Origin: a virus
Taxonomy: Duplodnaviria; Heunggongvirae; Uroviricota; Caudoviricetes
Length of the DNA: 37,860 bases
Virus record (IMG/VR): IMGVR_UViG_2541047762_000007
Reading direction: 5' to 3' (one strand)
Both the position numbers and the translations under genes were made by a program. The notes beneath the pieces were generated by a model. It was not told the origin of the DNA. It made no database searches and worked only from the letters and a program-made list of their open reading frames with translations. Below are positions 1 to 16,861 of this stretch, piece by piece; position 1 is the stretch's first letter, and the number at the start of each line of letters is the position of its first letter.

Positions 1-933
1 TTATGCCGCCAGCACGCGGTTGCGTCCATCATTTTTCGCCCGATACAAAGCATCATCAACGCGTTTAAACAGTTCATCGATGCTTTCATTTCCTTCGTGA
101 TGCGCCACACCAATGCTGACGGTAAAGCGTGGTAAGCCCGAAATACTCACTTTTGCCACGCTTACGCGGATAGTTTCAGCCAGCGAAAGCGCGGTATCCA
201 GTGGGGTTCTTGGTAGCAATAAGACAAACTCTTCGCCTCCCCAACGAAACACCAAATCGCCTTTGCGAGCGCAACTTTCGAGGGTGCGGGCGAGGGCGCA
301 TAACACCTCATCACCTTTAGAATGCCCATAGAGATCGTTAATGTGTTTAAAACGATCGGTGTCGATGAGCAATAAGCTGTAATCCTGAGCGATGGCGAGG
401 TGCTGCATTTGGCCTGGCTCGGTAATGTGGTAAAACTGTCGCCGATTCAGTAATCCGGTCATCGCGTCATGGTGGGCAGCATGTTCCAGCTGCTCCTCCA
501 GCCGTTTTTGCTCAGTAATATCATGCACAATACATAACATGAGCTTGTCGCCATAAATTTCAATCGGCCCAGCATAGGTCTGCACATGACGAGTCGAACC
601 ATCCGCCAGTTTATGAACAAAATTCAAAGGCTTATGGCCACCGGGTAAATGCGAAATTTCATGCATGATAGGCATGACGCGTCGCCCGAGCATATTTATT
701 TCCCAGGTATGTTTCTGGCACATCGTTTCATGGTTATAGCCATAGAAATTGAGCGCGGCGAGGTTAGCATCGACGATTTGGCCATCTCGTGAGGGGTCAA
801 TCAACAACATTGGTGCAGAGTTAGTCAGAAAAAAGCGCGCATAAAAACCTTGTTTTTTGCGCTGATAATTTGCCGAGCGACTGGCTTTTAAACCCAGCGT
901 TGCCGGTGCTTCGATACCTTCGAAAATAATCAC
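1..933 (-). CDS. PAS-GGDEF diguanylate cyclase (host gene; 5' end may be interrupted by prophage)
   Basis: Translation has the GGDEF active-site motif (RWGGEEF) and a PAS-like N-terminal region. Stop codon at 1..3. First codon is GTG at 931..933, and the frame stays open upstream to 982 with no ATG. Confidence 0.85.
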   Translation of the reverse strand: MIIFEGIEAPATLGLKASRSANYQRKKQGFYARFFLTNSAPMLLIDPSRDGQIVDANLAALNFYGYNHETMCQKHTWEINMLGRRVMPIMHEISHLPGGHKPLNFVHKLADGSTRHVQTYAGPIEIYGDKLMLCIVHDITEQKRLEEQLEHAAHHDAMTGLLNRRQFYHITEPGQMQHLAIAQDYSLLLIDTDRFKHINDLYGHSKGDEVLCALARTLESCARKGDLVFRWGGEEFVLLLPRTPLDTALSLAETIRVSVAKVSISGLPRFTVSIGVAHHEGNESIDELFKRVDDALYRAKNDGRNRVLAA

Positions 934-956
934 CGGTTCTGCTTCTGTCAGCTTTC

Positions 957-1003
957 TGATGCGCCGCGCGATAAATGCACTCTATCTTGTGCGATAAATG
1001 GCA
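957..1003. repeat. Putative prophage right terminus with transposase-binding repeats
   Basis: Sequence from 957 (TGATGCGCCGCGCGATAAATGCAC...) resembles the Mu R1/R2 end as I recall it (TGAAGCGGCGCACGAAAAACGC...CGATAAATGCG) and starts with TG. GCGATAAATG occurs twice, at 968..977 and 991..1000. Confidence 0.45.
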
Positions 1004-1034
1004 TCCACGCGGCGTTTCATTATTTGAAAAAGAA

Positions 1035-1607
1035 TTACATTTCAGGTTGCGTTATGACAGTCCCAACAGGGTGGTAGCGGTAGATCGTTGACAGTCCAAT
1101 ATCATAGATAATTGCCAGCCGCTTTCTGTCATACCCTTTCTGGAGCAATCTTGCGATCTGCTCATGCTGCTCCTTCGTCAGTTTCGGGCGACGTCCTCCA
1201 ACTCTCCCTTGTGCTCGCGCAGCAGCCAGTCCTGCCAGCGTGCGCTCAACTATCAGTTCACGCTCCATTTCTGCCAGTGCACCCATCATATGAAAAAAGA
1301 ACCTTCCCATCGGAGTGCTGGTATCGATTGAATCCGTCAGACTGCGAAAATTGACACCTTTTGCGCGTAGCTCTTCTGTGAGAGCAATGAGGTGTTTCAT
1401 TCTTCTACCCAACCGATCCAGCTTCCAGACCACCAATGTATCCCCTCTTTTAAGGCACTTTAAAGCGCGTTTCAGGCCTGGTCGTTCCGACTTGGTTCCG
1501 CTCATTTTGTCCTCAAAAATCTGTTCACATCCTGCGCACATTAATGCATTGCGTTGCAAATCTGTGTTTTGGTCATTTGTTGACACACGTATGTAGCCAA
1601 TCAGCAT
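1035..1607 (-). CDS. gin: Gin/Pin/Hin-family serine DNA invertase
   Basis: Translation from the ATG at 1607 (MLIGYIRVSTNDQNTDLQRNAL...GRRPKLT...) closely matches my recollection of Mu Gin and e14 Pin. The ORF-track start at 1736 is probably an upstream artefact. Confidence 0.9.
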   Translation of the reverse strand: MLIGYIRVSTNDQNTDLQRNALMCAGCEQIFEDKMSGTKSERPGLKRALKCLKRGDTLVVWKLDRLGRRMKHLIALTEELRAKGVNFRSLTDSIDTSTPMGRFFFHMMGALAEMERELIVERTLAGLAAARAQGRVGGRRPKLTKEQHEQIARLLQKGYDRKRLAIIYDIGLSTIYRYHPVGTVITQPEM

Positions 1608-1673
1608 TAAAAATACTCCCTTTTGAGTGGTTAAAGTACTGAGATAATGTGGGGAGGATTTGAGAGATAAACG

Positions 1674-1889
1674 TTGGTTTAGGAGAAGGCTCGGCGCTAC
1701 CCGTTGGTGTGCCTGTTCCGTGGCCCACCGCCACACCGCCAGCAGGCTGGTTAAAGTGCGACGGGCGCGCCTTTACAAAAGAACAATATCCTGTTCTGGC
1801 CAGAGTCTACCCGACCCTCCGTCTTCCCGATTTACGCGGTGAGTTTATCCGTGGATGGGACGACGGGCGCAAAGTTGATACAGGACGTA
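1674..1889. repeat. Left inverted repeat of invertible tail-fibre segment (gix-like site at 1664..1687)
   Basis: About 216 bp here is the near-identical reverse complement of 3061..3279. Its outer end (gagataaacgTTGGTTTAGGAGAA) resembles the Gin/Hin crossover half-site consensus. Confidence 0.7.
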
Positions 1890-2191
1890 AGTTGCTGTCC
1901 GCACAAGGGGCAACGCTGTTAAGAACAGCAATGCTGGATTATTATAACCAGGACACTACGGGAACCTCGGGGATAGTCGGCATGGGATTCAACAATGAAG
2001 ATTCCATTACAGACCTTCGTGAGGGCAGCTTTAAAATGCCGGACGGGACAACATTCAGCAATCCTGCCATGGCAATGTCAGACAATGGTATGCAGGCTAC
2101 TATTCTGACCTCTATCAGAAGCGGGTATGCGAAGGGTATCACTGTCAGACCCCGTAGCATTGCACTTAATTACATTGTGAGGGCAGTTTAA
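1709..2191 (+). CDS. Alternative tail-fibre C-terminal cassette (Sv'-like), promoterless in current orientation
   Basis: The first ~60 aa are nearly identical to the region of the 2812..4398 fibre that begins ~150 aa from its C-terminus (PVPWPTATPPAGWL...LRLPDLRGEFIRGWD), then diverge. It lies inside the invertible segment on the opposite strand. Confidence 0.7.
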   Translation: MPVPWPTATPPAGWLKCDGRAFTKEQYPVLARVYPTLRLPDLRGEFIRGWDDGRKVDTGRKLLSAQGATLLRTAMLDYYNQDTTGTSGIVGMGFNNEDSITDLREGSFKMPDGTTFSNPAMAMSDNGMQATILTSIRSGYAKGITVRPRSIALNYIVRAV

Positions 2192-2805
2192 TGAGTAACA
2201 CTGCAGTTCTGGATGAAAACGGTATCGCCACTGTAGCGGGCGATATCACTGTATATCACTATGACGAGGAAACCCGGGAATACACCTCATCCTCTGTGGA
2301 GTATCTCGCCCTTGGGGTGGGTACTCCGGCACATTCGTGCGCCGATGCACCGCCGGAAGCAATTTCGGGTTACGTGGTTTGCCGGACTGCCACGCTGAAC
2401 GGGTGGGAGCATGTGCCTGATCACCGCGGCGAGACGGTATACAGCACGGAGAACGGTAACCCCGTTCTGATTACCCAACCGGGTGATTACCCGGCGGACA
2501 CCACCACAAAACAGCCAGCCACGCCATGGGATACCTGGAACGGTGAGGCGTGGGTAACCGATACTGAACGGCAGCGAGCCGCAGAACTGGAGGTTGCCAG
2601 ACAGCAACGCCAGCAACGGGTGAAACAGGCGATGGCGTCCGTCGATCTTATCAACCTCAAACTGCGTGCTGGTCGCAGTCTGAAACCAGAAGAAACGGCA
2701 AAACTGAACGCCGTGCTGGATTATATCGACGAGCTGAACGCACTGGATATCAGCAAGGCACCTGAAATCAGCTGGCCGGAAGCGCCACTGGCGCTTGCCG
2801 GCTGA
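2191..2805 (+). CDS. Tail fibre assembly protein (Tfa/U-like)
   Basis: Position directly after the alternative fibre cassette (TAATG overlap), ~200 aa, composition typical of lambda Tfa / Mu U chaperones. Confidence 0.75.
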   Translation: MSNTAVLDENGIATVAGDITVYHYDEETREYTSSSVEYLALGVGTPAHSCADAPPEAISGYVVCRTATLNGWEHVPDHRGETVYSTENGNPVLITQPGDYPADTTTKQPATPWDTWNGEAWVTDTERQRAAELEVARQQRQQRVKQAMASVDLINLKLRAGRSLKPEETAKLNAVLDYIDELNALDISKAPEISWPEAPLALAG

Positions 2806-2811
2806 ACGGTA

Positions 2812-4398
2812 TCACGCCGCCCTCACGATATAGTTAAATGCGATATTGCGGGGGCGAGCTGATACATAAGCCCACCAGTCATATCTTTGTGCACCTTTAG
2901 AGGATGCATCAAATATCCACTTTTTGCCATTTATGACCCCCAGTTGATTAGAGGTTAAAGCGTCACCAAATCCGTATTGTGTAGAGCCGAGCGAACTGAT
3001 ATCTCCGGTATTATTATCATCAAAACCGGATACGATAGTCCCTTCCTGAAATGAAAGTACCGTACGCCCGGTATCAACCTTGCGACCACCGTCCCATCCA
3101 CGGATAAACTCACCGCGCAAATCGGGAAGACGGAGGGTCGGGTAGACTCTGGCCAGAACAGGATATTGTTCTTTGGTGAACGTAGCTCCGTTGCACTGTA
3201 ACCAGCCTGCTGGCGGTGTGGCGGTGGGCCATGGAACCGGTACACCAACAGGCAATGCAGAGCCTTCCCCCAAACCAAGGTAATTGAGGACATCTTTTAT
3301 ACTGCCCTTAGCGATAATAGCGCGACCAATAGCTGTAAGGGTTGCCAGCGCTGCGCGGTCTGCTCCGGTAAAATAAGGCAACCGATCTGCTGCAGTGGCA
3401 AGTCCTGCCAGAGCAGTGAGCGTGGCATCTGCCGGTTGTTTTCCGTTTGCCAGATCGTATGCAGCCTTGACGGCCTTTGGTGTGGCGGCCAGCGTTTCAG
3501 ACGTGCTGTTGATGGCGCTGCTCAATTGTACGGTGCCTTTTGCCGTCAGCGAGGCAGCAGGCACTCCCGTTATCTGACTCCACGGGTGAGTGTGGCTGAC
3601 GGGCGCCTTGCCGGCTGCAAGGTCGTATGCAGCCTTGACGGCCTTTGGTGTGGCGGCCAGCGTTTCAGACGTGCTGTTGATGGCGCTGCTCAATTGTACG
3701 GTGCCTTTTGCCGTCAGCGAGGCAGCAGGCACTCCCGTTATCTGACTCCACGGGTGAGTGTGGCTGACGGGCGCCTTGCCGGCTGCAAGGTCGTATGCAG
3801 CCTTGACGGCCTTTGGTGTGGCGGCCAGCGTTTCAGACGTGCTGTTGATGGCACTGCTCAGTTGTACGATCCCTTTACGGGTCGTTGTTGCATCCTGGGC
3901 TGTGTATTTTCCCCGGGCCAGATCATACGCGATTTTCACAGCCTTCGGCGTGGCAGCCTCAGTTTCTGATTGACTGTCCGTGGCACTGCTCAGCTGTACG
4001 GTGCCTTTTGCCGTCAGCGAGGCAGCAGGCACTCCCGTTATCTGACTCCACGGGTGAGTGTGACTGACGGGTGCCTTGCCGGCTGCAAGGTCGTATGCAG
4101 CCTTGACGGCTTTTGGTGTGGCGGCCAGCGTTTCAGAGGTGCTGTTGGTGGCACTGCTCAGTTGGGTGAACCCCTTAGCTGTCAGTGTCGCGTCCGGGTG
4201 GTTACGGGAACGTACGTGTTCAGCCAGTGACTGTGCGGCTTCCTCCGTTTTTTTCTTCAGCCATTTCGTCCTGTTTGCCAGTTGCCGGGGGGCTCGATTT
4301 GATATCCCGTCTGCACCACCCAGAACCGGATCTGATGTCTCCAGTTGATAGATATTTTCTTCCCACTTTTCTGTTTCATTCAGGTTTCCCATAATCAA
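2812..4398 (-). CDS. Tail fibre protein with internal tandem repeats
   Basis: 528-aa ORF with repeated fibre motifs (TAKGTVQLSSAxxSTSETLAATPKAVKAAYDLA, SHTHPW). C-terminal part lies inside the invertible segment. Position matches Mu S. Confidence 0.9.
   Translation of the reverse strand: MIMGNLNETEKWEENIYQLETSDPVLGGADGISNRAPRQLANRTKWLKKKTEEAAQSLAEHVRSRNHPDATLTAKGFTQLSSATNSTSETLAATPKAVKAAYDLAAGKAPVSHTHPWSQITGVPAASLTAKGTVQLSSATDSQSETEAATPKAVKIAYDLARGKYTAQDATTTRKGIVQLSSAINSTSETLAATPKAVKAAYDLAAGKAPVSHTHPWSQITGVPAASLTAKGTVQLSSAINSTSETLAATPKAVKAAYDLAAGKAPVSHTHPWSQITGVPAASLTAKGTVQLSSAINSTSETLAATPKAVKAAYDLANGKQPADATLTALAGLATAADRLPYFTGADRAALATLTAIGRAIIAKGSIKDVLNYLGLGEGSALPVGVPVPWPTATPPAGWLQCNGATFTKEQYPVLARVYPTLRLPDLRGEFIRGWDGGRKVDTGRTVLSFQEGTIVSGFDDNNTGDISSLGSTQYGFGDALTSNQLGVINGKKWIFDASSKGAQRYDWWAYVSARPRNIAFNYIVRAA
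3061..3290. repeat. Right inverted repeat of invertible tail-fibre segment (gix-like site at 3265..3290)
   Basis: Reverse complement matches 1674..1889. TTCCCCCAAACCAAGG at 3265..3280 is the inverted partner of the left site. Confidence 0.7.
3440..4200. repeat. 168-bp (56-aa) tandem repeats within tail fibre gene
   Basis: Three near-identical units are in register at ~3455, 3623 and 3791, followed by two more diverged units. The plus-strand shadow ORF 3436..3969 shows the same period. Confidence 0.85.
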
Positions 4399-4973
4399 CT
4401 GCTCCCGTGGTTATAACTGCCATCATGGATGGCAGTATTGTTATAGCGAATGGCCACAGACTGATACTCCAGGCTGGCCAGATGGCAGCGGGCCGGTGCA
4501 AATGCAGCCAGCGTCTGACGCAGCATCGCGGCCTGATCGTTAGTAATGGGCTGTTTCAGAATAACGCGATAAACTGCCCAGGCGGCTGCATCTCCATGAA
4601 CAAACAGTCCGTTATAGCTGCGATTGCCGTCGTAACTGAGACGACCTGTGCCTTCAATCAGATCCACTTCACCAAAGCCAAAACGGCGGATAACTTCCCG
4701 GATTGACCACGGCGTCCCTTTATACCGGTGCAGTTCGATGGCTGCTTTTATAAGCATGCGGCGAACATCGTCCGATTCCGCCAGCTCCCAGCCATCGCCA
4801 GACAGTGAGAACTGCTCGCCCAGCCATGGCAGCGCGGAACTGTCGACGATATCGACGAGAAAGACCATCAGTACGCTCAGGTCGATGTTATCCAGCCGTC
4901 CTGCCAGTCTTCCCAGCGTCCTGAGACTGATATCACCCTCAAGCGGTGGCGGGAGTTGTAATGGCTCAGTCAT
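4395..4973 (-). CDS. Baseplate protein (P2 gpI / Mu gp48-like)
   Basis: Size and position between the baseplate J-like gene and the tail fibre; overlaps its neighbours. Confidence 0.7.
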   Translation of the reverse strand: MTEPLQLPPPLEGDISLRTLGRLAGRLDNIDLSVLMVFLVDIVDSSALPWLGEQFSLSGDGWELAESDDVRRMLIKAAIELHRYKGTPWSIREVIRRFGFGEVDLIEGTGRLSYDGNRSYNGLFVHGDAAAWAVYRVILKQPITNDQAAMLRQTLAAFAPARCHLASLEYQSVAIRYNNTAIHDGSYNHGSS

Positions 4974-6069
4974 CAGACACTCCAGTCATGTTAAGAGTGA
5001 TTGCCGTACAGTTTGCCCATTCGTTTTCTGCCACCACCCGCAGTGCCGGTGTCACCAGTTCAACCTGGTACACCCCGGAAACGGACAATGCACTGATAAT
5101 CTGGCTGGGGACAATATCGCGCCCCAGCGTGGCGGCACGTGATGCCACCCAGTTCTGTATGGCGCTGTTAGCGGCATCTTTTACAGACCTGGCATCCTGA
5201 TCACGATAGATCGTAATCCTGGCTTCAATGGTGTAATCCACCTTCACTGGTGTTTTAGCCCGCACTGTATCAGTGAGTGGCCTGACTTTCTCATCAGAGC
5301 AGAAACTCTCTACCAGCGTGAGAACACCGCCGTCCGGCAGACCGGTACTGAGCAGCGGATACAGATCTACGGTCCCGGGAACCGGGGAAAGCACAGCAAC
5401 ATCGACAATGTTGGGATGGGCCTGCATGGCATGAAAGCGGTATGCGCCACGGCTTCCGGCATTGGTGAATGACTCCGGGGCCAGCCTGATACGCTCCCGG
5501 AGCCTGTCATCGTCTTCCTGTTCTGAACCGCCGGAACTGGCCGTCAGATTGCTCACCAGCAGGTCGACGTTATCAATCTCATCGAGTAACTGACTGACCT
5601 GCGCAGGTTGCCAGCCGTTACCAGCGGTACCGGGTTCGGTACAGGTGGACGTGACATTGACCAGCAGCAATCCGGCCTTCAGTACCACATCTGTATCGGT
5701 GGCAAAAATAACGCTGTCGGAAGCGCTGACGCGGGTGCCTGCCGGGATCAGCACATCAATGGCCAGTGCCTCATCTACGGAGAACTGGAGCGTGGTGGTG
5801 GCAGGCTGCGCGGCAAGACGGTATACACCGACCAGTTCACCGAGGTAATCAATCATCGGCTCACGGGCAAAGGCGACCAGATTCTGCTTTGCTGCCTCCT
5901 GTACCGCAACCCTGACCAGCATTTCGCGATAGGCCCACAGATCAATCAGCAGACGTTCTGCCTGTGCCGGGTACAGCGTTTTGCCGGTATCCGCTTCATA
6001 CTTCGCAATCATTTCTGCCGTGATTTTGTCGGCATCGCGTTCAATAAAATCGGGTTCTGTCAGCGCCAT
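4966..6069 (-). CDS. Baseplate J-like protein (Mu gp47 / P2 gpJ-like)
   Basis: 367 aa, position and composition match baseplate J family; translationally coupled to neighbours. Confidence 0.8.
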   Translation of the reverse strand: MALTEPDFIERDADKITAEMIAKYEADTGKTLYPAQAERLLIDLWAYREMLVRVAVQEAAKQNLVAFAREPMIDYLGELVGVYRLAAQPATTTLQFSVDEALAIDVLIPAGTRVSASDSVIFATDTDVVLKAGLLLVNVTSTCTEPGTAGNGWQPAQVSQLLDEIDNVDLLVSNLTASSGGSEQEDDDRLRERIRLAPESFTNAGSRGAYRFHAMQAHPNIVDVAVLSPVPGTVDLYPLLSTGLPDGGVLTLVESFCSDEKVRPLTDTVRAKTPVKVDYTIEARITIYRDQDARSVKDAANSAIQNWVASRAATLGRDIVPSQIISALSVSGVYQVELVTPALRVVAENEWANCTAITLNMTGVSDD

Positions 6070-6407
6070 AGCAGCTCCTGAGTCCGGGTCTGTCCGTCTG
6101 AGCCTTTCCAGCTCACCCGGAGCGTAAGATGTTCGCCGTCGACGGCGGGTTTAACTGACATAAGCTGGCAGCGGGGCTCCCAGCGCCGGATGGCATCGAC
6201 GGATTCGCGCACCACATGCGGAATGGCCCGGTCTACAGGCCAGTCGATATAAAGATGCAGATTGCTGCCGAACTCCGGGCGATGCGGGTCGCTGCCGCGG
6301 GGAGTCCGCAGGATAATTTGAATCGCCTGCCGGATATCATCCAGCCCCCGGACAATTTCGCCGGGAGCCTGCAGAGTTGGTTGCCAGAATACTGAGGTCG
6401 TTTTCAT
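6060..6407 (-). CDS. Baseplate wedge protein (gpW/gp25-like)
   Basis: 115 aa with gpW/gp25-like features (GSDPHRPEFGS...), located upstream of the J-like gene. Confidence 0.75.
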   Translation of the reverse strand: MKTTSVFWQPTLQAPGEIVRGLDDIRQAIQIILRTPRGSDPHRPEFGSNLHLYIDWPVDRAIPHVVRESVDAIRRWEPRCQLMSVKPAVDGEHLTLRVSWKGSDGQTRTQELLWR

Positions 6408-6532
6408 GGAGGCAGTATTGCCCCCGTGCGGGAACGCTGATATTAAAGGGATTTAAAAAAACGTAAAATGGTTGAGCTTATTGAAAAACAGCCAATATTG
6501 TTAATTAATAATCACCTGAAAACGGAGGTTTT

Positions 6533-6718
6533 ATGAAGAAAAAATTTTTTCAGATGACAAATAAAAGTCATTTCATTAACCCGGAACACATCGTTGAAGC
6601 ATACTTTACAGTTAAAGGTACTTTCGAAATAACACTTTCAACAGGTAAGAAAATTCAACTCGACGAAAGCGAAAGCAAGTATCTGATGGATGTATTTGAT
6701 TTTGAGAAGCCACTCTAA
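6533..6718 (+). CDS. Small AT-rich moron ORF (61 aa), unknown function
   Basis: Antisense to the surrounding baseplate operon. Strong SD (ACGGAGG) 5 nt before the ATG, AT-rich upstream region with -10-like TAAAAT, and an intrinsic terminator immediately downstream. Confidence 0.55.
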   Translation: MKKKFFQMTNKSHFINPEHIVEAYFTVKGTFEITLSTGKKIQLDESESKYLMDVFDFEKPL

Positions 6719-6727
6719 TTGCCAGTG

Positions 6728-6751
6728 AGGCCGCCCGGTGCGGCCTTTTTT
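6728..6751 (+). terminator. Rho-independent terminator of the moron ORF
   Basis: GC hairpin AGGCCGC-CCGGT-GCGGCCT followed by a T-run (6746..6751). Confidence 0.75.
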
Positions 6752-6755
6752 CATA

Positions 6756-7352
6756 TCAATGAGAATGGTGATTAGAGTTAGAGCCATCAGACAGCATACT
6801 GCCCGTGGCATGGGCATTCCCTTTAATCTCGATATTGCCATGGATGGTCGCGGTAACACCTTTACCACCAGAACCCGCCATGCCTCCTTCGTAAATCAGC
6901 TTTCCCCTGACACGCAGCTCTCCGGTAAGTTCGGTTTCCGGTGCGTCAATCGTGGCTTTCTGTGTTTTCAATACCACATCAGCACCACACTCAATGACAA
7001 TATGCTCAATGCCGCCCCGGATGGTCAGAGTGTGCGTCTTCCGGTTGTAGCTGTACTCTGCACCATCAGCAAACCGGGTTCCCCGGATATTTTTGTCACT
7101 GAACGGTGGTTTATCGACGTCTGAATACACCGCGCCCAGAATAACACCATCCTCGCCGTTGGCATCGAGCAGCACCTCAACCTGCTCCCCCACGTCAGGG
7201 AGCCAGTAATCTTTGTTATCCTGGGTATTGCGCTGCAGCACGTTAAGCCAGTTTGTGCGCAGGTTATCGCATTCAGGCAGACGAACGCGGGCCTGAACCC
7301 TGTCGGCATCAACGGCACTGACCGTACCGACCTGACGAGTGACACCAGTCAT
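6756..7352 (-). CDS. Baseplate spike/hub protein (P2 gpV / Mu gp45-like)
   Basis: 198 aa with glycine-rich, His-rich C-terminus typical of gpV spikes; sits between the gpD-like and gpW-like genes. Confidence 0.75.
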   Translation of the reverse strand: MTGVTRQVGTVSAVDADRVQARVRLPECDNLRTNWLNVLQRNTQDNKDYWLPDVGEQVEVLLDANGEDGVILGAVYSDVDKPPFSDKNIRGTRFADGAEYSYNRKTHTLTIRGGIEHIVIECGADVVLKTQKATIDAPETELTGELRVRGKLIYEGGMAGSGGKGVTATIHGNIEIKGNAHATGSMLSDGSNSNHHSH

Positions 7353-8503
7353 TTTTTCTTCTCCTTAATCACCGTCGATGTACTGCCATCCGGGTGATAA
7401 ACCGTGAGTTTCTGAGTTTTTTGTTTTTTCCCTCTTGTGACTGGCCCCCGTGCCACTTCCAGCTCTGTGGTGTAGCCGCTGTTACGGTCAAACGCATGGC
7501 GGGCAGTGGTTATGAGCCATGGCCCGGATAACTGCCCAAAACTCACCAGTTCAATTTTGTTGCCTGCTGTCAGTTGAGGTGTTCCCGTCAGCGTCAGGGA
7601 GCCGTTCTGCTGGTATTCGTTATGTCTGGCCAGTGCTGAATCCGCTTTAATCCGGGCACTGTCCGGGTCGCTGACGCGGCTGTTAACTTTAAGTGAGTCA
7701 GCGCTGGTAACCTTACCACCTTTGAGCTTTTTGTCGCTTTCACGGGTACCACCATCAGCTTCGTAGACGATCAGTTTTTTACTGCTGCTTTTCTGGTGTT
7801 TTACCTTTGCAGATTTATAGACCCGGTTGATGGTGTCACGCAGGGAAAAGCGGGCCACATCCTGCGGTTTTAACTGCCTGACCGGCTCCTGACTGCGCAG
7901 TGTGGCCAGATGAGAAAAAATCAGCTGGTCACTGACCACTTTCACTGCATAACCATACTCGCTGGCCAGCCGGCGCAGAAAACCCACGTCGGTTTCAGCA
8001 TACTGGGTCACCCGGTCGATTCTGATGGACTCAATGCTGCCCACCAGTTTCAGCCGGTGCTTTCTGGCAATCCGCCCCGCAACAGCTGCCAGCGTGGTGT
8101 TCTCAAAACCACGACTGGTTTTAGTCCGCAGGGCACTGTTAACCGAGGTGGCCACCCCACGGATAGAAACAACGGAAGCGGGCGAACTCACTTCGATCTC
8201 GTCTATAGAGAACGTACCGCAGGACAGCAGCTTCTCGCCCTGATAGCCCATTTTCAGCGTCAGCGTGTCACCCTTGCCCGGATACCATTTATCCAGCCAG
8301 CGGCCATCGGTGTCGTCCAGCTCCACCTCAATGGTATCGGACTCATTTTTGATGTTATCGCTCCAGGTCACACGGGTGACATAAGGCGCGATATCAGAGG
8401 TGATGTTTTTCTGCAGATACCACAGAGTGAACACCGGTGTCAGCACATCGCTGACGCCGGTTAACGCTGATGTGACTTGCGCAGTGCTGTTTATCTCAGC
8501 CAT
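7349..8503 (-). CDS. Baseplate hub / late control D-like protein (Mu gp44-like)
   Basis: 384 aa, position downstream of tape measure and upstream of the spike gene. Confidence 0.75.
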   Translation of the reverse strand: MAEINSTAQVTSALTGVSDVLTPVFTLWYLQKNITSDIAPYVTRVTWSDNIKNESDTIEVELDDTDGRWLDKWYPGKGDTLTLKMGYQGEKLLSCGTFSIDEIEVSSPASVVSIRGVATSVNSALRTKTSRGFENTTLAAVAGRIARKHRLKLVGSIESIRIDRVTQYAETDVGFLRRLASEYGYAVKVVSDQLIFSHLATLRSQEPVRQLKPQDVARFSLRDTINRVYKSAKVKHQKSSSKKLIVYEADGGTRESDKKLKGGKVTSADSLKVNSRVSDPDSARIKADSALARHNEYQQNGSLTLTGTPQLTAGNKIELVSFGQLSGPWLITTARHAFDRNSGYTTELEVARGPVTRGKKQKTQKLTVYHPDGSTSTVIKEKKK

Positions 8504-8706
8504 GGGGCAATATCCTCTTCTGTACGGGCTTCTTCAGCCTCAATCACCGGGATCAGTAACAACAGCCCGGAGGGCAGCACCGGCGTGATGGCCACGTGCG
8601 GATTGGCGGCAATAATCCGGGGATAGCCCAGCGGGTCACCGTAGTACTGCCATGCCAGCGAATCCCAGCGCTCTCCGTCACGGGTAACATGTTCAAGAAA
8701 CATCAC
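8491..8706 (-). CDS. Tail protein X-like (LysM-like)
   Basis: 71 aa, pattern resembles P2 gpX (W..YYG.P......ANP). Confidence 0.55.
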   Translation of the reverse strand: MMFLEHVTRDGERWDSLAWQYYGDPLGYPRIIAANPHVAITPVLPSGLLLLIPVIEAEEARTEEDIAPWLR

Positions 8707-9587
8707 ACACTCCTCGTCAGTATTCTGGCGGCCACTGCACTTAATCCCGGAGACATGCGGTTGAATGCTGTGCCGGCGGCGTTAAGCTGCCCGGAAACGG
8801 TATCCAGAGCACCTGCAATATTTCTTTTGTCCACACCACTCAGCGCAGACTGTGCCTGCTGTACATACGTGGCTGCTTCGCTGGCTGTTCTGGCCAGACT
8901 GATGGCATCGGGCATGGATTCAGAGAGTGCGTTAAACGCCGGAACACTTTTCCCCAGAGCCCCGGAGATATTACCCAGTCCGCTCATCAGCCCCGGCACA
9001 CGGGTCAGTGCGACAACGGGGTTATCCTTCATTTTCTGTGTCACCCGAACGGCGCTGATAGTGGTCTGGAGTACAGACTGCGCCTGTTTCGCATAGTTGA
9101 CGCCGTTGCGGATGAACTGCGCCACCCCTGAAGGTGAAGGAATGGCACCGGAGACCGCCCCGACACCCGGGAGCTTCGTGCGTATTGCCGGTGGTTGCAG
9201 AGGATTTTTCGGGTCACCGGTGTATTCCCGGAGAGACACGGTGGCACTGACAGCCAGCACGTTGCCGGTACTGTCAGTCTGCTCGCTGGTTGCAGTCACA
9301 TCGGTAATCACGAACCAGCCGCGATAGTCACCGTTGCCGAAGACCAGCGCCAGTGCCTGATGGGCTTTCATGGCTGTTCGCAGTCTCGCCAGCTCCACAT
9401 CGGGTACACAATAATGCTGATGGAAAACCAGAGTTATCTGGATTTCGTCCAGCCTGTCGCCGACGAATTGCAGGCCAGGCTTCCCCCCGATGCGGGCATG
9501 CTCCGCATAATCGACGCCGAACGTGGCCTCGAAGCCGTCCCAGTAGGTAATCAGCTCAAACTCAATATCACCCAGTACGGCAAACAT
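8703..9587 (-). CDS. Tail protein (Mu N / DNA circulation protein-like position)
   Basis: 294 aa, immediately downstream of the tape measure gene and coupled to it. Confidence 0.55.
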   Translation of the reverse strand: MFAVLGDIEFELITYWDGFEATFGVDYAEHARIGGKPGLQFVGDRLDEIQITLVFHQHYCVPDVELARLRTAMKAHQALALVFGNGDYRGWFVITDVTATSEQTDSTGNVLAVSATVSLREYTGDPKNPLQPPAIRTKLPGVGAVSGAIPSPSGVAQFIRNGVNYAKQAQSVLQTTISAVRVTQKMKDNPVVALTRVPGLMSGLGNISGALGKSVPAFNALSESMPDAISLARTASEAATYVQQAQSALSGVDKRNIAGALDTVSGQLNAAGTAFNRMSPGLSAVAARILTRSV

Positions 9588-12538
9588 CAGCGGTACTCCT
9601 TACGTTGTTTCTGAGCCAGCAGACGCTCCAGCATTTTTTCCAGCTCATGCAGACTCATATTCAGGGCACCAGTCAGTCCTGCAGGCGCTGTGGTTTCCCT
9701 GCCATTGAGGAAAAACTGAGGATTAAAGCTGACCTGGATACCACCAGACGTTCCACCGCCGGTTGCAGCTGCACCACGGCCTGAATATCCGGCAGCCAGG
9801 ATTTCAGGCGAGGGGATACGGGGAACATCCGGTGTCATCTCATTTGCCAGACGTTGCCCTGGTAAAATCGATGCCCGGGTGGAGAGCGGAATAGCGGGCA
9901 TGGAAGACAAACTATTGATTACGGATCCGATCGCATTTTTAGCAGACGACATAAACCCGTTGATATCGGGCAACGGCATACTGAAGCGAACACCTGAAGT
10001 GTTATCCCGTATTTCTGGCCCCTGAATGCTCACGGGCATTTTGGGGAGCAGTTCACTGACCATTCGCTGACCGGCCAGAGCTGCAAGCGGAGTGCTCCGC
10101 TGCAGGCCAATGGCGGCCCCCTGCGCGATATTGTCACCAAAGCCCATAAACACGCGGCTCGGCGAATGAATGCCCAGCTTTTCGCTGAACCAGCCACTGA
10201 TGCTGTCGCCCATTCCGGTTACGCTGGTTTTGAGTGACTCCCATTTGTTTTTGATACCGTTAATCAGACCGTCGACAAGATGGCCACCGAAGTCGGTGAA
10301 CTTTGCCGGCAGCTCAACGCCGAGATATTTCAGCGCAGCTGCAAAGGCTTTATAGAGCAGACCTGCCGGCGACCAGTTAATCAGCAGCTTACCAGTTCCC
10401 ACGATACCGCCGTTAAAGGCTTCCTGAATGTCAGCCCAGCGTTGTTTAAACCAGCTACTGATGCTGTCACCCATTCCGGTTACACTGGATTTGAGCGCCC
10501 CCCATTTGTTTTTGATACCGTTAATCAGACCGTCGATAAGATGGCCACCGAAGTCGGTGAACTTTGCCGGCAGAGCAACGCCGAAATATTTCAGCGCAGC
10601 CGCAAAGGCTTTATAGAGCAGGCCTGCCGGCGACCAGTTAATCAGCAACTTACCAATTCCCACAATGCCGCCGTTAAAGGCTTCCTGAATGTCAGCCCAG
10701 CGCTGTTTAAACCAGCCACTGACTGCCCCCCAGTTGCGGTAGATAAGGTAAGCTGCTGCCGCGACAGCGGTGATAACGAGACCGATGGGATTCATCATCA
10801 GCGCACGTCCAATCCAGAGAACAGCACGTCCGGCGAGCATAATTCCGCGAACCAGCCCCCCGGAGAGCACGCCACTCAGTGTTCTGGCTCCTCTGGCGAC
10901 GGCGCTAAATCCGGTCACCAGCCAGCGGAGCTTACCGCCTTGCCCCAGTGCGAGCGACAGACGAAGCCAGTTGGCCCGAAGTAAAACAGCATTTTTCCAG
11001 ACACTTACAAAGGGGGAAATAAGGAGATTCAGCCCCAGTTTGAGACCAACAGTCGCTATCTTAATCGCAAGGAGCGCACTGATGAGCTTAAAAGCCCCAC
11101 TGACAAATTGCGGGTGAGTCGCTACCCAGTGTTTTGTCCCCTGAATGAGTGGGAGCAAGTCCTGAGTCAGAGAAATAAAAGATGGAGCTAATTGATCGCC
11201 CAGCGTAATTGCCAGATCGCGACTGCTGACCATAAGTGCTTTAGTGGCTTCAAGGGGAGATTTCAGCCGCTGATCATAAGCACTGGCAAGCAAATCGTTA
11301 TCCGCAGCCCTGAGAGCACCGGCGCGGATCTCGCGATATCTGTCCATGTTGGCCAGCATCGGGCGGATAAATGCCATGACCTGCATATCCGCGAACATAT
11401 CACCCAGACCAAAGTTTTTCGCCAGAGCCTGAAGTGCCTCATCTCTTGCCGTATCATTCTTTATTTTCATGGCGGATTTGAAGCCGGCCAGCGCTTCGGG
11501 GCTTTTGGCATTGAGGTAACGTTCTATAACACTCAACATCCCTTCAATCGGAGAGATCCCCGCAGCCTTATAACTCGCAATAGATCCCTGCAAATCAATA
11601 CCCAGATCAGCAAACTGTTTCTGAGTATCGCGGGCAAAAATTTTGGTAAGAAAGTTTTTAAAATTATTGGCTGCCTCGTCGGTGGAACCTGCACCGATTT
11701 TTGCTATCTGGAGACTGGCCCCGATTTCAGCAACAGCCTCTTTTCCACTGGCAATACCCGCCATCATTGGGGCCAGGGACTGCATCCACTTGACCTGATC
11801 CGGGATTTCAAATGACCCCTGGTCACCGGCATAAGCCATAATATTCTGAACGGCACCAAAATCTCTGGCCGCACCTTTCAGGGAGTTTTGCCAGACTGCG
11901 GCCACTTTTGCCCAGTCCTGAGCAGACGTGCGTGTTGCCGTTGCCGCGCGGGCAATATCCGGCATCAGAAAACCGATATCTGACACATTATCAATATTGT
12001 CGCTGATGAGTGAACCCACCGCCTCCTGCAGCTCATCCTGATACTGATTGTATTTAAGCGCCCAGCCTTTTATCTGTCCGGCAAGTGCATCCCGCGTTTT
12101 ATTGTCATATTTTGCGGTGATCGACATATCAATCATTTTGTCCTGAAAAGACATGGACTGCTGAACGGCAGGGGAAACCGTATGATAAACAGTCTGTGCC
12201 ATGCCATACGCTTCAATCCCCTGACCATACAGCGCCATGCGGTTAGCTTTCAGCGCATCACTGGTAGCGGATGCCGCTGACAGACGGCGCTGCTGGCGCT
12301 CAATTTGCTCCATGGTGCGGCTTACCCGCAGCAGCTCGCTGTTGAGATGCTGCATCTGGGAAGAACCCAGTTGACCATAACGTTCTGTTGCACGGGTTAA
12401 AGCGTTCTGACGTTCCTGCAGGCGGCGTGAGGTATCGCTCAGGGAATCAAGCGCACGGCGGGTACCGCTCATTGCAGAACGGAATGTGCTGCCAATCATC
12501 CCGCCGATAACAACGCCGACTGAAAACTGTCCCGACAT
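9587..12538 (-). CDS. Tail tape measure protein
   Basis: 983 aa, helical N-terminus, hydrophobic central segment, located between chaperone and baseplate genes; contains an internal tandem duplication. Confidence 0.9.
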   Translation of the reverse strand: MSGQFSVGVVIGGMIGSTFRSAMSGTRRALDSLSDTSRRLQERQNALTRATERYGQLGSSQMQHLNSELLRVSRTMEQIERQQRRLSAASATSDALKANRMALYGQGIEAYGMAQTVYHTVSPAVQQSMSFQDKMIDMSITAKYDNKTRDALAGQIKGWALKYNQYQDELQEAVGSLISDNIDNVSDIGFLMPDIARAATATRTSAQDWAKVAAVWQNSLKGAARDFGAVQNIMAYAGDQGSFEIPDQVKWMQSLAPMMAGIASGKEAVAEIGASLQIAKIGAGSTDEAANNFKNFLTKIFARDTQKQFADLGIDLQGSIASYKAAGISPIEGMLSVIERYLNAKSPEALAGFKSAMKIKNDTARDEALQALAKNFGLGDMFADMQVMAFIRPMLANMDRYREIRAGALRAADNDLLASAYDQRLKSPLEATKALMVSSRDLAITLGDQLAPSFISLTQDLLPLIQGTKHWVATHPQFVSGAFKLISALLAIKIATVGLKLGLNLLISPFVSVWKNAVLLRANWLRLSLALGQGGKLRWLVTGFSAVARGARTLSGVLSGGLVRGIMLAGRAVLWIGRALMMNPIGLVITAVAAAAYLIYRNWGAVSGWFKQRWADIQEAFNGGIVGIGKLLINWSPAGLLYKAFAAALKYFGVALPAKFTDFGGHLIDGLINGIKNKWGALKSSVTGMGDSISSWFKQRWADIQEAFNGGIVGTGKLLINWSPAGLLYKAFAAALKYLGVELPAKFTDFGGHLVDGLINGIKNKWESLKTSVTGMGDSISGWFSEKLGIHSPSRVFMGFGDNIAQGAAIGLQRSTPLAALAGQRMVSELLPKMPVSIQGPEIRDNTSGVRFSMPLPDINGFMSSAKNAIGSVINSLSSMPAIPLSTRASILPGQRLANEMTPDVPRIPSPEILAAGYSGRGAAATGGGTSGGIQVSFNPQFFLNGRETTAPAGLTGALNMSLHELEKMLERLLAQKQRKEYR
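10190..10715. repeat. 261-bp tandem duplication inside tape measure gene
   Basis: CCAGC(C/T)ACTGA...TGCTGTC recurs at 10190, 10451 and 10712, in frame (87 aa). Two full copies of WFKQRWADIQEAFNGGIVG...SVTGMGDSIS appear in the protein. Confidence 0.85.
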
Positions 12539-12613
12539 AGTGGTTAACCTCCGGGGAAGGTGAAAAGACGTGAGGGGATAACGCAGAACAGCCGCTACTG
12601 GCGGCTGTCTGTA

Positions 12614-12871
12614 CTATGATTTGTCGCCGTACTCGCTTTTGATTTGCTCTTCAGCCTGCTCCAGCCACATCTCCAGATCGTCAGTATCGAGGGCATCAAT
12701 CTCCCCCGGCTGAAACCGGAACCATCTCGCCAGCAGCCCCTGCGCCTGCGTCAGCGCCCTGGTTGCTCTCACCCATCCCCGTGATGAGCTGAAATCGTTT
12801 CTGTAACTGCAGGTAATCAGCCAGATCCATATTGTCGAGATCTTCCGGGAGAAGACCAGTACTGCGGGCAA
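12614..12871 (-). CDS. Putative frameshift extension of tail assembly chaperone (GT-like C-terminal part)
   Basis: Open frame overlapping the 3' part of 12696..13031. Its distal part (EIDALDTDDLEMWLEQAEEQIKSEYGDKS) looks protein-like; its proximal part does not. Confidence 0.4.
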   Translation of the reverse strand: MPAVLVFSRKISTIWIWLITCSYRNDFSSSRGWVRATRALTQAQGLLARWFRFQPGEIDALDTDDLEMWLEQAEEQIKSEYGDKS

Positions 12872-13031
12872 TCAGCGGTTCGTCCCAGTCTGCCGGGTTT
12901 TTGCTGATTTTGCGCACCTGCTTCAGGTCTTTTACCGTCAGGCGTTTCAGTTCAACCTGCTCAATTCTGGTGCCTGCAGCAGTGGTGAAGGGATAAGACA
13001 ATTTAAAAGTATCGGATGGGGTCTGTGACAT
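12696..13031 (-). CDS. Tail assembly chaperone (G-like), candidate frameshift donor
   Basis: 111 aa directly upstream of the tape measure. A second ORF (12614..12871) overlaps in the +1 frame and ends just before the tape measure gene. Confidence 0.55.
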   Translation of the reverse strand: MSQTPSDTFKLSYPFTTAAGTRIEQVELKRLTVKDLKQVRKISKNPADWDEPLIARSTGLLPEDLDNMDLADYLQLQKRFQLITGMGESNQGADAGAGAAGEMVPVSAGGD

Positions 13032-13128
13032 GATTGTGCTCCTGTGTAAGTTCAGGGCAGTATGTCGGGAGAAGCGCGTGACGGATATTAAAGGAGATTA
13101 AGAAGAAGGGGCCGGAGCCCCTGTGATG

Positions 13129-13410
13129 TCAGCAAGTGCGAAACCCCTTGCAGTTACGCAGGAAAGCGATGAGAAGCGTCTTTCCCTCAGATTTGCCGGT
13201 GCCGGAGAACCAGTGGTCGGGAGGCTCCCATGCTTCAATCAAATCCGCCAGTTTGCGGGCCTTTGAACGTGTGCAGTCAATCGGGTCATTGGTTTTACGG
13301 GTATTAAAAAGGGTTTCCACCCCCGGAATATCAAGGAGGGTAAACCACGTACCATTTGACATGCCCAGTGCCGCACATCGTCCTCCTTTATCCGTCAGTT
13401 CAACACTCAC
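13129..13410 (-). CDS. Hypothetical protein between tail tube and chaperone
   Basis: 93-aa ORF tightly packed after the tube gene (GTG start); no recognisable motif. Confidence 0.35.
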   Translation of the reverse strand: MSVELTDKGGRCAALGMSNGTWFTLLDIPGVETLFNTRKTNDPIDCTRSKARKLADLIEAWEPPDHWFSGTGKSEGKTLLIAFLRNCKGFRTC

Positions 13411-13412
13411 CG

Positions 13413-13934
13413 TCAGCCCCCGATATTGATACGGTAGTCAGTCAGTTGATCAACACCGCCGACCCGGAAGATGTTGGCCAGATAGTCCAGTTGCAGCAGC
13501 TCTTCACCATCCAGTACCTGTCTGATATACGTGCAGGTGAAGCTACTGGAGAACTCGGCGTTCTCGTGCTGTTTGAACGTCCCCAGCGGGTTCTTCTTGA
13601 ACATAATCGTCAGGAAGGTGACCAGCGGGATTTCGTCAATCAGCCCCTGCGAGCTGTAGCGCTGGACGCTGGAACGACACTGCAGTGCCAGCGACCTGTA
13701 CGGGTTCGCGGCTGACAGCATCGCATCGCGGTAAAAGCTGTTCCATTTGATTTCGCCTTCCAGTTTGTCAAAACCAGCCGGGAGTTCCACCTTACCCACC
13801 ATCCCCAGCGCCTTGTGTTCCTGCATAATCATGGAGACATCGGGGAGTTTAACTTCCTCAGCCCGTCCCAGCAGGTTAGTACCATCCAGATAGATGTTGG
13901 CATTCGTGATGCGGTTTATCTCAATCTTTGACAT
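13413..13934 (-). CDS. Tail tube protein (Mu M / P2 FII-like)
   Basis: 173 aa immediately downstream of the sheath gene. Confidence 0.8.
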   Translation of the reverse strand: MSKIEINRITNANIYLDGTNLLGRAEEVKLPDVSMIMQEHKALGMVGKVELPAGFDKLEGEIKWNSFYRDAMLSAANPYRSLALQCRSSVQRYSSQGLIDEIPLVTFLTIMFKKNPLGTFKQHENAEFSSSFTCTYIRQVLDGEELLQLDYLANIFRVGGVDQLTDYRINIGG

Positions 13935-15361
13935 CAGTTGCCCCCTTTCAGGGTTAACAGGTATTCCGAGGTGATCTCAGTCTCAAACGTCAGTCGCTCC
14001 AGCGGCGGCGGTGGCGTATATTTGTAGCTCAGCAACAGGTGCCCGGCGGCCAGCTCCGTCTCCGGATTGCGGGCCGGATCAAACCAGCAACGGAAGCCCA
14101 GTACCGCACCATCACCAGTCATTTTGCGACCGTAGGCGTTGACCGACTCCGTCAGTGCATCAATCAGCGCCTGAGTAATCGGCATGTCGATGTACTGCTG
14201 GCTGAAATAACGAATGGACTCGTTGATCACATCACCGGTGCGGCGAACGTTCTCAAAGTTACGCATATGGGTGACCGTTGGCCATGCTGCCGTCCGGTTA
14301 CCCCACAGACGAAGGCCGCTGCCGTAACTGCTGAATACCGTGGTGATCCCCTGTTCGTTAAGCAGGTTCACCTCACTCTGCGGGTCATCAATCATCGCGG
14401 ACAGCTGGCGCTCCACGCCGGTGATCCCCAGAATCTCCTGATTGGAGGATGACCACCAGTAGCCCTTGTCCAGATCGACTCTGGCACGCAGACCTGCTGC
14501 ACGCTGGCTGAGCGGCTCCAGACGCTCTGTGTTTGTCACCGGGTCATATACCTTCACATGCGGATAGCACAGACGGACGCGGTCGGAGCTGGTATTGAAG
14601 TTGATGGTGCCTTCCGGGCCACGACCTGCCAGAGCCTGTGCAAAGGTGGTACCGACAGGCGCATCAATGTAGGTTACCGCGCCCAGCTTCTCTGCCATGG
14701 CGATAAGCTCAACTGCGACACTCTTCTGGGTGCAGAACACCGGCGCAATCAGAATTTTGGCGAAATAGCCGTACAGGTTGAAGCTGTCGTTAAGCAGCTT
14801 CATGCCGGTTCGGTTTCCGGCGCTGTTCACCCCGCCGATGATGTCCGCCGCAGTCACCTTCGACGGGTCCGCGTACTCATAGCTCACCTTCACGCTGCCA
14901 CCGGCCTCAATAGCCTTGCCCAGGTTCGTGAGCACACCCGCCTGCGCATCAACACGGTAGTCCGTGTTCGCCGTGTGGGTGGTGCTGCCTTCACTGTTTT
15001 TCACCACCACATTAGCGACAACCGGATGCGCCAGTCTGGCCTGCCCTGTCGATTTGTCAAAGGTAACCACCTCATCCTCGATCGCCGTTTTATGTTTCGC
15101 CGGGTCGAGGACGTTAATGACCAGAACGGTGCCTGCACTATGGTCATAAATCGCATCCAGCGCCTGCGGAATGGTAAAGCCGGTGAACTGGCTGCCAAAT
15201 GCCGCTGCGTCTTTCTCAGACAGGCACTGTACCAGCGTATTGACATCCCCCATCGGGGCGGTACCAATCAGGCCAATAACGGCAGATTTCACCGTTTTAA
15301 CCGGGCGGGCTCCGTTTTCCACCTCAATGGTTTCGACGCCATGCAGATAGTTAGCTGCCAT
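13934..15361 (-). CDS. Contractile tail sheath protein (Mu L-like)
   Basis: 475 aa, sheath-like composition, followed by the tube gene. Confidence 0.9.
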   Translation of the reverse strand: MAANYLHGVETIEVENGARPVKTVKSAVIGLIGTAPMGDVNTLVQCLSEKDAAAFGSQFTGFTIPQALDAIYDHSAGTVLVINVLDPAKHKTAIEDEVVTFDKSTGQARLAHPVVANVVVKNSEGSTTHTANTDYRVDAQAGVLTNLGKAIEAGGSVKVSYEYADPSKVTAADIIGGVNSAGNRTGMKLLNDSFNLYGYFAKILIAPVFCTQKSVAVELIAMAEKLGAVTYIDAPVGTTFAQALAGRGPEGTINFNTSSDRVRLCYPHVKVYDPVTNTERLEPLSQRAAGLRARVDLDKGYWWSSSNQEILGITGVERQLSAMIDDPQSEVNLLNEQGITTVFSSYGSGLRLWGNRTAAWPTVTHMRNFENVRRTGDVINESIRYFSQQYIDMPITQALIDALTESVNAYGRKMTGDGAVLGFRCWFDPARNPETELAAGHLLLSYKYTPPPPLERLTFETEITSEYLLTLKGGN

Positions 15362-15605
15362 GGGAGTCCTCCGTTTTCACTTCGCTGTCACTGCTGCTTC
15401 TGCGCTTTGGTGACTGCACAGCCGGTGTGACGGCGGGTTTAGTCTCTTCAGATACCGGCGTCAGGTGCTTCAGCGCCACCAGTACCTTCACGTAGTCATG
15501 CTCCTCCGGCAGGGAAACCGTCTTCCCCGGCCAGAGCAGGATTTCGGTTCCGTCCGACAGCGTGACGCCGCTGGCCGGGCCGGAATAGCGGTATTCTTTC
15601 ATCAC
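15351..15605 (-). CDS. Hypothetical protein (Mu gp38-like position)
   Basis: 84-aa ORF coupled between head-completion genes and the sheath gene. Confidence 0.5.
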   Translation of the reverse strand: MMKEYRYSGPASGVTLSDGTEILLWPGKTVSLPEEHDYVKVLVALKHLTPVSEETKPAVTPAVQSPKRRSSSDSEVKTEDSHGS

Positions 15606-16512: not shown

Positions 16513-16513
16513 G

Positions 16514-16852
16514 TCACACCCCGCGCAGGATACGAATGACGTCGCCTTCACCCCCGGCTTCATCAAGTGCAATACCACAGGATTTACCGTCGCCGGACTG
16601 CGGCACGGCTCTGGCCTGAGCATCTGACTGAACAGCCACACCACGGCTGACAGCGGCCCCGGCCTCGACAGCAATAATGCCCAGAACGCTCACCGGCGTG
16701 CTGTCGCCGGTAACAGCATCCACTTCGGCAACCCCGAGCGCTGCGGCACCGGCTTTACAGGGGGTATTATCTGCCCCGACAAAACGCTGCTGTGCCAGTG
16801 CTGCCCCTGCCGTTACGGTTGTGATCAGAATGACCTGCTGAGTGGTTCCCAT
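16514..16852 (-). CDS. Small head protein (Mu gp35-like position)
   Basis: 112 aa, Gly/Ala-rich, immediately downstream of the major capsid gene. Confidence 0.55.
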   Translation of the reverse strand: MGTTQQVILITTVTAGAALAQQRFVGADNTPCKAGAAALGVAEVDAVTGDSTPVSVLGIIAVEAGAAVSRGVAVQSDAQARAVPQSGDGKSCGIALDEAGGEGDVIRILRGV

Positions 16853-16861
16853 AACGCCTCC

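Follow-up and report, generated by a model that had tools for sequence, protein, structure and literature searches.

Bacteriophage Mu duplicates 5 bp of its target when it inserts, and the invertase genes of Mu-type phages are weakly expressed. Among the described transposable phages closest to the element reported here, BcepMu and phiE255 carry 23-bp imperfect direct repeats at both ends that are likely transposase sites (PMC2920897), and relatives of BcepMu combine TG...CA ends with an rve transposase (PMC2628397). The bacterial gene concerned is dgcM (ydaM). Together with PdeR and MlrA, DgcM forms the switch that turns on csgD, and deletion of dgcM strongly reduces both curli and cellulose (PMC3715855, PMC5635695), which places DgcM among the few cyclases with a strong and specific effect on the E. 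coli biofilm matrix, exerted via MlrA and CsgD. The gene is RpoS dependent and its product is described in the literature as having two PAS domains (PMC5635695), its 74-nt leader is targeted by OmrA/B and Hfq (PMC6443205), and the isolated GGDEF domain is catalytically active and binds MlrA (PMC3715855). In Shigella, dgcM is a pseudogene with a stop at codon 177, and its C-terminal part is translated without a canonical ribosome-binding site (PMC11327459).

We analyzed a stretch of 37,860 nt (the window; IMG/VR record IMGVR_UViG_2541047762_000007, Caudoviricetes) in which part of dgcM is joined to a prophage. Our results lead us to propose that a BcepMu-type phage transposed into dgcM, that the paired repeats at its end are transposase sites, and that dgcM has likely lost its function as a consequence, a joint reading to which we assign a probability of roughly 0.85. 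The features that define the boundary are as follows.

1..956, minus strand: 3' fragment of dgcM (ydaM), 100% identical to prophage-free alleles
1..933, minus strand: residual GGDEF open reading frame, from GTG (V101) to the native stop, 310 aa, with the second PAS and the GGDEF domain (ORF list, Pfam)
951..956, no strand: GCTTTC, near copy of the 6-bp target-site duplication, its partner at the other junction lying outside the window (far flank in contig L032 compared with the intact locus L001)
957..37860, no strand: body of the prophage, 37,066 bp in full, the last 162 nt with the other terminus lying past the window (overlap with L032)

When window positions 1-1700 were compared by megablast with 5,426 complete E. 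coli genomes, prophage-free strains matched positions 1-956 at 100% identity, and the match ended exactly at 956. The intact allele reads ...CAGCTTTC|GCAAAACAAG and the window ...CAGCTTTC|TGATGCGCCGCG, or, over a longer stretch, ...CAGCTTTC|GCAAAACAAGCC in strain 118UI (L001) and ...CAGCTTTC|TGATGCGCCGCGCGATAAATG in the window. Because the two sequences part after 956, position 957 is the first phage base and begins the TG tip, precisely where an earlier note on this DNA had placed a phage end. On the minus strand, positions 1-956 are the 3' 956 nt of E. coli dgcM, nt 278-1233 of a 1,233-nt gene; position 956 is dgcM nt 278, and codon R93 is cut behind its first base. In strain 118UI the intact gene encodes 410 aa and is flanked by smrA and ynaN/zntB, and Pfam places PAS_4 at residues 140-244 and GGDEF at 253-406, with residues 1-139 returning no Pfam match even at E=10. 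The GGDEF gene that the earlier note had recognized, listed at 1..933 on the minus strand, is therefore dgcM, carrying PAS_4 and GGDEF matches, and its GTG at 933 is internal codon V101 of native DgcM, the native start lying 300 nt further upstream. The note had also described this GTG as the only start in a frame that stays open into the phage end, which is the case: the in-frame stop is a TAG at 982-984, and no ATG, GTG, or TTG lies between it and GTG-933. Since the intact gene continues for 277 nt beyond the break, dgcM is interrupted at R93 and not abutted by the phage, in keeping with the truncation by transposition that the note had considered possible. Its proposal had depended on there being no intact homologue that starts at the same GTG with the same upstream sequence, and the uninterrupted alleles of related genomes, 100% identical over 1-956, indeed start 300 nt upstream and diverge from the window at the junction.

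The end of the window is the stop codon of the Mor-family gene, which is still within the phage, and the far junction was found in contig L032 (Logan assembly SRR784026) through an exact look-up of a rare 100-aa early protein. This contig is 100% identical to the window where the two overlap, over the final 7,006 nt of the window, runs for 162 nt more to the phage terminus ...CTCAAGTCTAATCA, and then continues with GCTTTCGCAAAACAAGCC..., its gene order being Mor, a 104-aa open reading frame, and zntB. In coordinates of the intact locus, the far flank opens at 3451 with GCTTTCGCAAAAC and the near flank closes at 3456, and the far flank is identical to the intact locus at 1,535/1,535 positions, covering the 5' part of dgcM, ynaN, and zntB. 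The 6-bp duplication GCTTTC and the contiguous flanks therefore identify a simple insertion of a 37,066-bp prophage. The earlier note had expected a target duplication at the other prophage end; the duplication is there, with a length of 6 bp and not the predicted 5 bp. The detached 5' part of dgcM encodes a 104-aa stub consisting of DgcM residues 1-95 followed by IRLEINDRE. On the near side, scaffold KE699937.1 (GCA_000457735.1, 2.48 Mb) is identical to the window at all 8,892 of 8,892 overlapping bases and then continues into smrA. Orthology to dgcM at the smrA-dgcM-zntB locus is apparent from both sides, with smrA downstream (L030) and ynaN/zntB past the far junction. A complete 410-aa dgcM reading frame attached to its promoter and leader is no longer present: the promoter, the leader, codons 1-92, and the initial base of codon 93 lie 37,066 bp away from the remainder of the gene.

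The scaffold was retrieved by an exact-protein look-up with the ATG-start version of the tail-fibre protein (window 2812-4392, minus strand), which matched one record, and the TTG-start version gave no record in the same look-up. The far junction was read in the Logan assembly and not in the NCBI scaffold itself, and L032 is linked to the window by the perfect overlap of 7,006 nt and by being the sole dgcM-flanked far end found. Exact-pattern scans of IMG/VR returned neither the near junction nor the predicted far junction, a look-up of the truncated DgcM protein returned other dgcM lesions only, and look-ups of Mor (13,802 blocks) and of the transposase (34 blocks) brought up numerous insertions elsewhere, this one not being among them.

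The features that bear on the identity of the element and on its end are the following.

957..1034, no strand: non-coding prophage terminal region at the tail-fibre/invertase end ("right" in the BcepMu convention), with a 5'-TG tip (homology break, end alignment)
968..977, plus strand: terminal repeat copy 1 (GCGATAAATG), putative transposase-binding site (motif search, end alignment)
991..1000, plus strand: second copy of the terminal repeat (GCGATAAATG), spaced 23 nt from the first (motif search, end alignment)
1035..1607, minus strand: Gin-like serine invertase, read toward the phage end and the dgcM fragment (Pfam Resolvase and HTH_7; 76% to Mu Gin)
1671..3281, no strand: invertible tail-fibre segment bounded by 229-nt inverted repeats at 1671-1899 and 3053-3281 (86% complementary)
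30708..32477, plus strand: DDE transposase of rve/Tn552 type, 589 aa (Pfam rve only, 1.1e-8; homology to BcepMu gp09)
32488..33654, plus strand: AAA+ transposition ATPase, ExeA-like, a MuB analogue (Pfam AAA_22, 3.4e-20; ExeA family in relatives)
37471..37860, plus strand: activator of the Mor family, with no further gene between it and the far (left) end (Pfam Mor; position of BcepMu gp01)

Judged by its genes and ends, the prophage is a BcepMu-type transposable phage and not a MuA-type Mu. The transposase is 68.3% identical to BcepMu gp09 over residues 1-577 (98% of its length) and 69.2% identical to that of phiE255, it has no BLASTP similarity to MuA (E 0.87), and Mu was not among its tblastn matches in 50,697 phage records. 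The ATPase gene adjoins the transposase gene in the same position as BcepMu gp08. The genes for Mor, GemA, Gam, the ATPase, and the transposase follow one another outward to one end, and the repressor, holin/SLT, terminase, portal, Mu-like head, and P2-like tail genes run in the opposite direction to the other end, an order that is collinear with BcepMu (NC_005882, compared via the annotation of a relative in strain SCU-101) and not with Mu. Early genes lie on the plus strand of the window and late genes on the minus strand, in place of the all-rightward layout with a left-end repressor that is seen in Mu. The invertible segment, which is comparable to the G segment of Mu, carries alternative fibre C termini and assembly genes, and its ...PVGVPVPWPTATPPAGW... 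fibre stretches occur in duplicate, one on each strand. The target duplication is 6 bp long in all four of the four insertions for which both junctions were read, namely, GCTTTC here, AAAAAT in SCU-101, ACGTGA in HN68, and GCTTTT in A31, where the insertion splits rlmI; no figure for the duplication length of BcepMu was found in the accessible papers. The far end of the same phage is joined to about 25 host sites in other E. coli assemblies, including putA, pntA/ydgH, rtcB, chbG, thiD, rlmI, a type VI secretion locus, and other prophages, and ends that adjoin so many unrelated host sites are the signature of a transposable phage.

The organization of the termini agrees with this assignment. 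The motif GCGATAAATG occurs at 968-977 and 991-1000, 23 nt apart, and nowhere else on either strand of the 37.9-kb window, against a chance expectation of 0.03 and with 0/100 shuffles giving two matches; the earlier note had pointed out this pair. The near end opens with TGATGCG, and its tip TGATGCGCCGCGCG adjoins different host DNA in strains SCU-101, HN68, and A31, while the far end always closes with ...TCTAATCA at about 25 loci with different flanks, which gives the element the TG...CA termini of BcepMu-type phages. The alignment of the two prophage ends that the note had suggested proved informative beyond this element: both ends here and both BcepMu ends, four termini in all, align in register, each starting with TGA(T/A), and all four carry G(C/A)GATA(A/T)(A/T)T at offsets 12-21 and 35-44. 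Because they are kept in register at both ends and in BcepMu, the paired GCGATAAATG motifs probably represent the inner and outer transposase-binding sites of the phage end. In a comparison of window positions 957-1010 with the right end of Mu (L044), 16 of the first 21 nt were alike and the second repeat resembled Mu CACGATAAATGCG, a likeness at the tip that exists despite the lack of BLASTP similarity between the two transposases. The minus-strand RNA of 957-1019 is predicted to form a strong hairpin across both terminal repeats (-39.8 kcal/mol for a 131-nt stretch, z = -3.05) that is not followed by a U tract.

Three other accounts of the junction have to be weighed against transposition of a BcepMu-type phage into dgcM. 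GTG-933 is the first start that the ORF tool reports beyond the stop, and gene callers annotate the same 310-aa product, from which one might suppose that the phage abuts a naturally short GGDEF gene and interrupts nothing; however, 5,372/5,391 complete genomes with a match have a single place that accounts for 80% or more of the 644-bp stretch across the site, the dgcM annotated at this site is a 410-aa protein, and the missing 277 nt and the duplication are present at the other end of the prophage. We consider this the least probable account of all, as the intact alleles and the far junction rule it out for practical purposes. A secondary rearrangement beside the prophage, such as a deletion or an inversion, or an assembly chimera might be suspected from the window, which by itself contains a single junction, but two junctions were read in two independent assemblies, and the flanks are 100% identical to the intact locus and contiguous there except for the 6-bp duplication, which makes such an event very improbable. 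Just as improbable is a prophage of the classical Mu/D108 type, with MuA as its transposase and duplications of 5 bp. The TG tip, where 16 of the first 21 nt agree with the Mu R end, the Gin-like invertase (76%) beside that end, the adjoining invertible fibre segment, and homologues of Mor, GemA, and Gam would all suit it, yet the transposase shows the rve domain only and fails to match MuA (E 0.87), Mu is absent from the tblastn matches in 50,697 phage records, the duplication is 6 bp in 4/4 cases, early and late genes diverge in the manner of BcepMu, and the tail module is P2-like. The earlier note had called the terminus Mu R-end-like, and because of the 16/21 tip nucleotides, the adjacent Gin homologue, and the invertible segment this is a fair description of the end, whereas the phage behind it is of BcepMu type without similarity to MuA.

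The most probable course of events can be outlined as follows. A BcepMu-type myophage lysogenized an E. coli strain by DDE transposition into dgcM, its rve/Tn552-like transposase and AAA+ partner linking the TG...CA ends to the target GCTTTC (dgcM nt 278-283), which was cut with a 6-bp stagger. Phage DNA of 37,066 bp now separates codon R93 from the remaining gene; codons 1-95, which encode the 104-aa stub, are 37 kb off at the Mor end with the 74-nt leader and the sigma-S promoter, and the remaining 956 nt lie directly downstream of the phage invertase gene, without a promoter of their own or a good ribosome-binding site. The outcome would be a dgcM loss-of-function allele and a lysogen with little curli or cellulose. 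Shine-Dalgarno pairing before GTG-933 amounts to -1.9 kcal/mol compared with -4.1 for the native start, and the sole promoter-like match is at chance level. Because the promoter, the leader, and codons 1-95 lie 37 kb from the rest, and because the phage-derived frame offers no start codon and GTG-933 has a weak Shine-Dalgarno sequence, the most likely consequence would be loss of DgcM function and hence of curli and cellulose activation, little of either being expected since DgcM activates MlrA to switch on csgD. Two further candidates were rejected: a phage-DgcM fusion protein, since the phage-derived frame has no start codon and the invertase gene is in another frame, and an intrinsic terminator between the invertase gene and the dgcM remainder (dgcM'), since the strong hairpin located there has no U tract. 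No terminator-like site was found between the invertase stop and dgcM'. Given an active GGDEF domain, the missing terminator, and the Shigella product, residual or altered DgcM activity is possible.

The alternative to inactivation that deserves most attention is that read-through from the invertase gene, with a start at GTG-933 or at another internal codon, yields a deregulated DgcM lacking residues 1-100. We regard such a product as unlikely, and equally unlikely is the consequence it might have, namely, that loss of the N-terminal region, which contacts PdeR and masks the GGDEF-MlrA contact, leaves MlrA and csgD active without control by the sigma-S and c-di-GMP trigger. A truncated, deregulated DgcM is conceivable because the path for read-through is open, because the N-terminal domain masks the GGDEF-MlrA contact, and because a C-terminal product is known from Shigella. 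The invertase gene and dgcM' share a strand and are separated by 101 nt in which there is no terminator-like site and the phage-end hairpin lacks a U tract; moreover, the N-terminal domain of YdaM is dispensable for cyclase activity, inhibits GGDEF-MlrA binding, and contacts YciR-EAL (PMC3715855), and the split Shigella dgcM still gave a C-terminal product (PMC11327459). The pairing of only -1.9 kcal/mol at GTG-933 speaks against it, as does the deletion endpoint, which falls inside the N-terminal domain and not at a domain border and makes folding uncertain. The low expression of Mu-type invertase genes would limit any read-through as well. Somewhat more doubtful still is the idea that the insertion has created a natural "uncaged" DgcM, expressed by read-through from a constitutive invertase gene and free of both PdeR and its own N-terminal domain, which would make curli and cellulose phage dependent. 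Between inactivation and deregulation, inactivation appears more likely.

Damage to dgcM upstream of codon 101 is not confined to this insertion. The identical 310-aa residual reading frame was present in 109 blocks of the assembly collection, and six contigs examined (L004-L009) revealed a C277T nonsense mutation at R93, single-nucleotide deletions (nt 241 and nt 271), a larger deletion of 167 nt, and an IS element inserted around nt 262. These lesions indicate that dgcM is repeatedly broken in nature; their clustering is no evidence of a hotspot, because the 310-aa look-up detects only lesions upstream of codon 101. Like the Shigella flexneri pseudogene, the E. coli lesions split the GGDEF part from the N terminus, and the present case differs from the others in that the interruption is a 37-kb prophage that is also a possible source of outward transcription. 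Large interruptions are rare among complete genomes: in only 19/5,391 genomes with a match does no single place cover 80% of the 644-bp stretch.

In strains SCU-101 (NZ_CP048920; L002 position 4261, L003 positions 6974 and 44044) and C 237-04 (NZ_CP109921; L043), a related prophage with the same ends and the same orientation lies 27 nt upstream of the ATG of an intact dgcM, inside the 74-nt leader and with the 6-bp duplication AAAAAT. That insertion cuts the dgcM reading frame from its sigma-S promoter and leaves the phage invertase gene upstream. It represents a second independent event, at a distance of 305 bp from the insertion in the window. The chance of a second event within 305 bp is about 2% in a rough calculation that takes some 170 independent insertions to be distributed evenly along 5 Mb. 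On the same improbable reading that has DgcM uncaged, two insertions in this region would fit recurrent phage rewiring of the dgcM switch or a regional target preference better than pure chance.

The insertion described here is a clean and ordinary case of insertional mutagenesis by a phage, in which an element of known type has entered a well-studied gene, and it leaves the current understanding of dgcM and of these phage systems unchanged. Because the effect of DgcM on the biofilm matrix is strong, the insertion predicts the loss of the rdar/curli morphotype in a natural isolate, and phage transposition may thereby join point mutations and IS elements in the recurrent natural loss of the dgcM switch. 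A BcepMu-type phage that leaves 6-bp duplications and has hit many genes should also be of help in annotating pseudogenes and prophage borders. Among the 5,426 complete E. coli genomes, 624 (11.5%) contain the Mor-side end of this phage family, in 683 places and up to 3 copies per genome, none of them on plasmids.

Several observations concern the variability of this phage group. In the tail-fibre gene, a unit of 168 nt (56 aa) is repeated 2.6 times in tandem at positions 3448-3876, the copies being 97% identical, which made the protein distinctive enough for the look-up to single out the scaffold. The stretch at 26549-28721, between the repressor and the lysis genes, contains open reading frames of 158, 196, and 328 aa, the last of which, the single one of the three that was scanned, has no Pfam match. 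Relatives (L022-L029, L041, and L042) carry other cargo between the repressor and lysis genes, including a Dam-type methylase and a CI-type repressor, and the stretch looks like a variable immunity/accessory module. An IS21-family element (rve and IstB) occupies positions 12539-14340 of L029, within the early region of a relative's prophage, and the flanks in L013 and L019 place the phage inside another prophage.

Set beside the described systems, the prophage is closest in kind to BcepMu (Bcepmuvirus) and phiE255. It shares with them a transposase of rve/Tn552 type at 68-69% identity and its ExeA-like AAA+ partner, Mor and GemA at the left end, early genes that run leftward from a central control region, a succession of lysis, Mu-like head, and then P2-like tail genes, and TG...CA termini, each bearing a pair of repeat copies at a spacing of 23 nt and in matching register (PMC2628397, PMC2920897). 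It differs from BcepMu in its host, which is E. coli, in an immunity/accessory region that is unlike that of BcepMu, and in its right-end cargo, where a Gin-like invertase and an invertible fibre segment take the place of the acyltransferase of BcepMu.

At the level of individual phages, the nearest one on deposit is Escherichia phage PhiKM (PQ738613), from uropathogenic E. coli, which has 98.7% nucleotide identity over 89% of window 957-24000 and a transposase 98% identical to the one here; PhiKM and the dgcM prophage belong to essentially one phage species. The deposited PhiKM record, at 34.7 kb, has no match to the first ~1.2 kb of the prophage, its match starting from window position ~3146, and the insertion in dgcM is particular to the present strain. 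Apart from PhiKM, the deposited isolates that are closely related are limited to Phi06_2974 B and Klebsiella phage KP12.

With Mu (Muvirus) the phage has in common the habit of a transposable temperate myophage with near-random insertion and TG...CA ends, a Gin homologue (76%) and an invertible fibre segment beside the right end, homologues of Mor, GemA, and Gam, and an R-end-like tip. In contrast to Mu, it has no MuA-type transposase, it makes a 6-bp and not a 5-bp duplication, its early region is inverted relative to the late genes, its tail is P2-like, and com/mom are absent. Membership in Mu proper is thus ruled out, while the likeness to Mu in lifestyle remains, and the phage is a mosaic in which a BcepMu-type core is combined with an invertase like the Gin of Mu.
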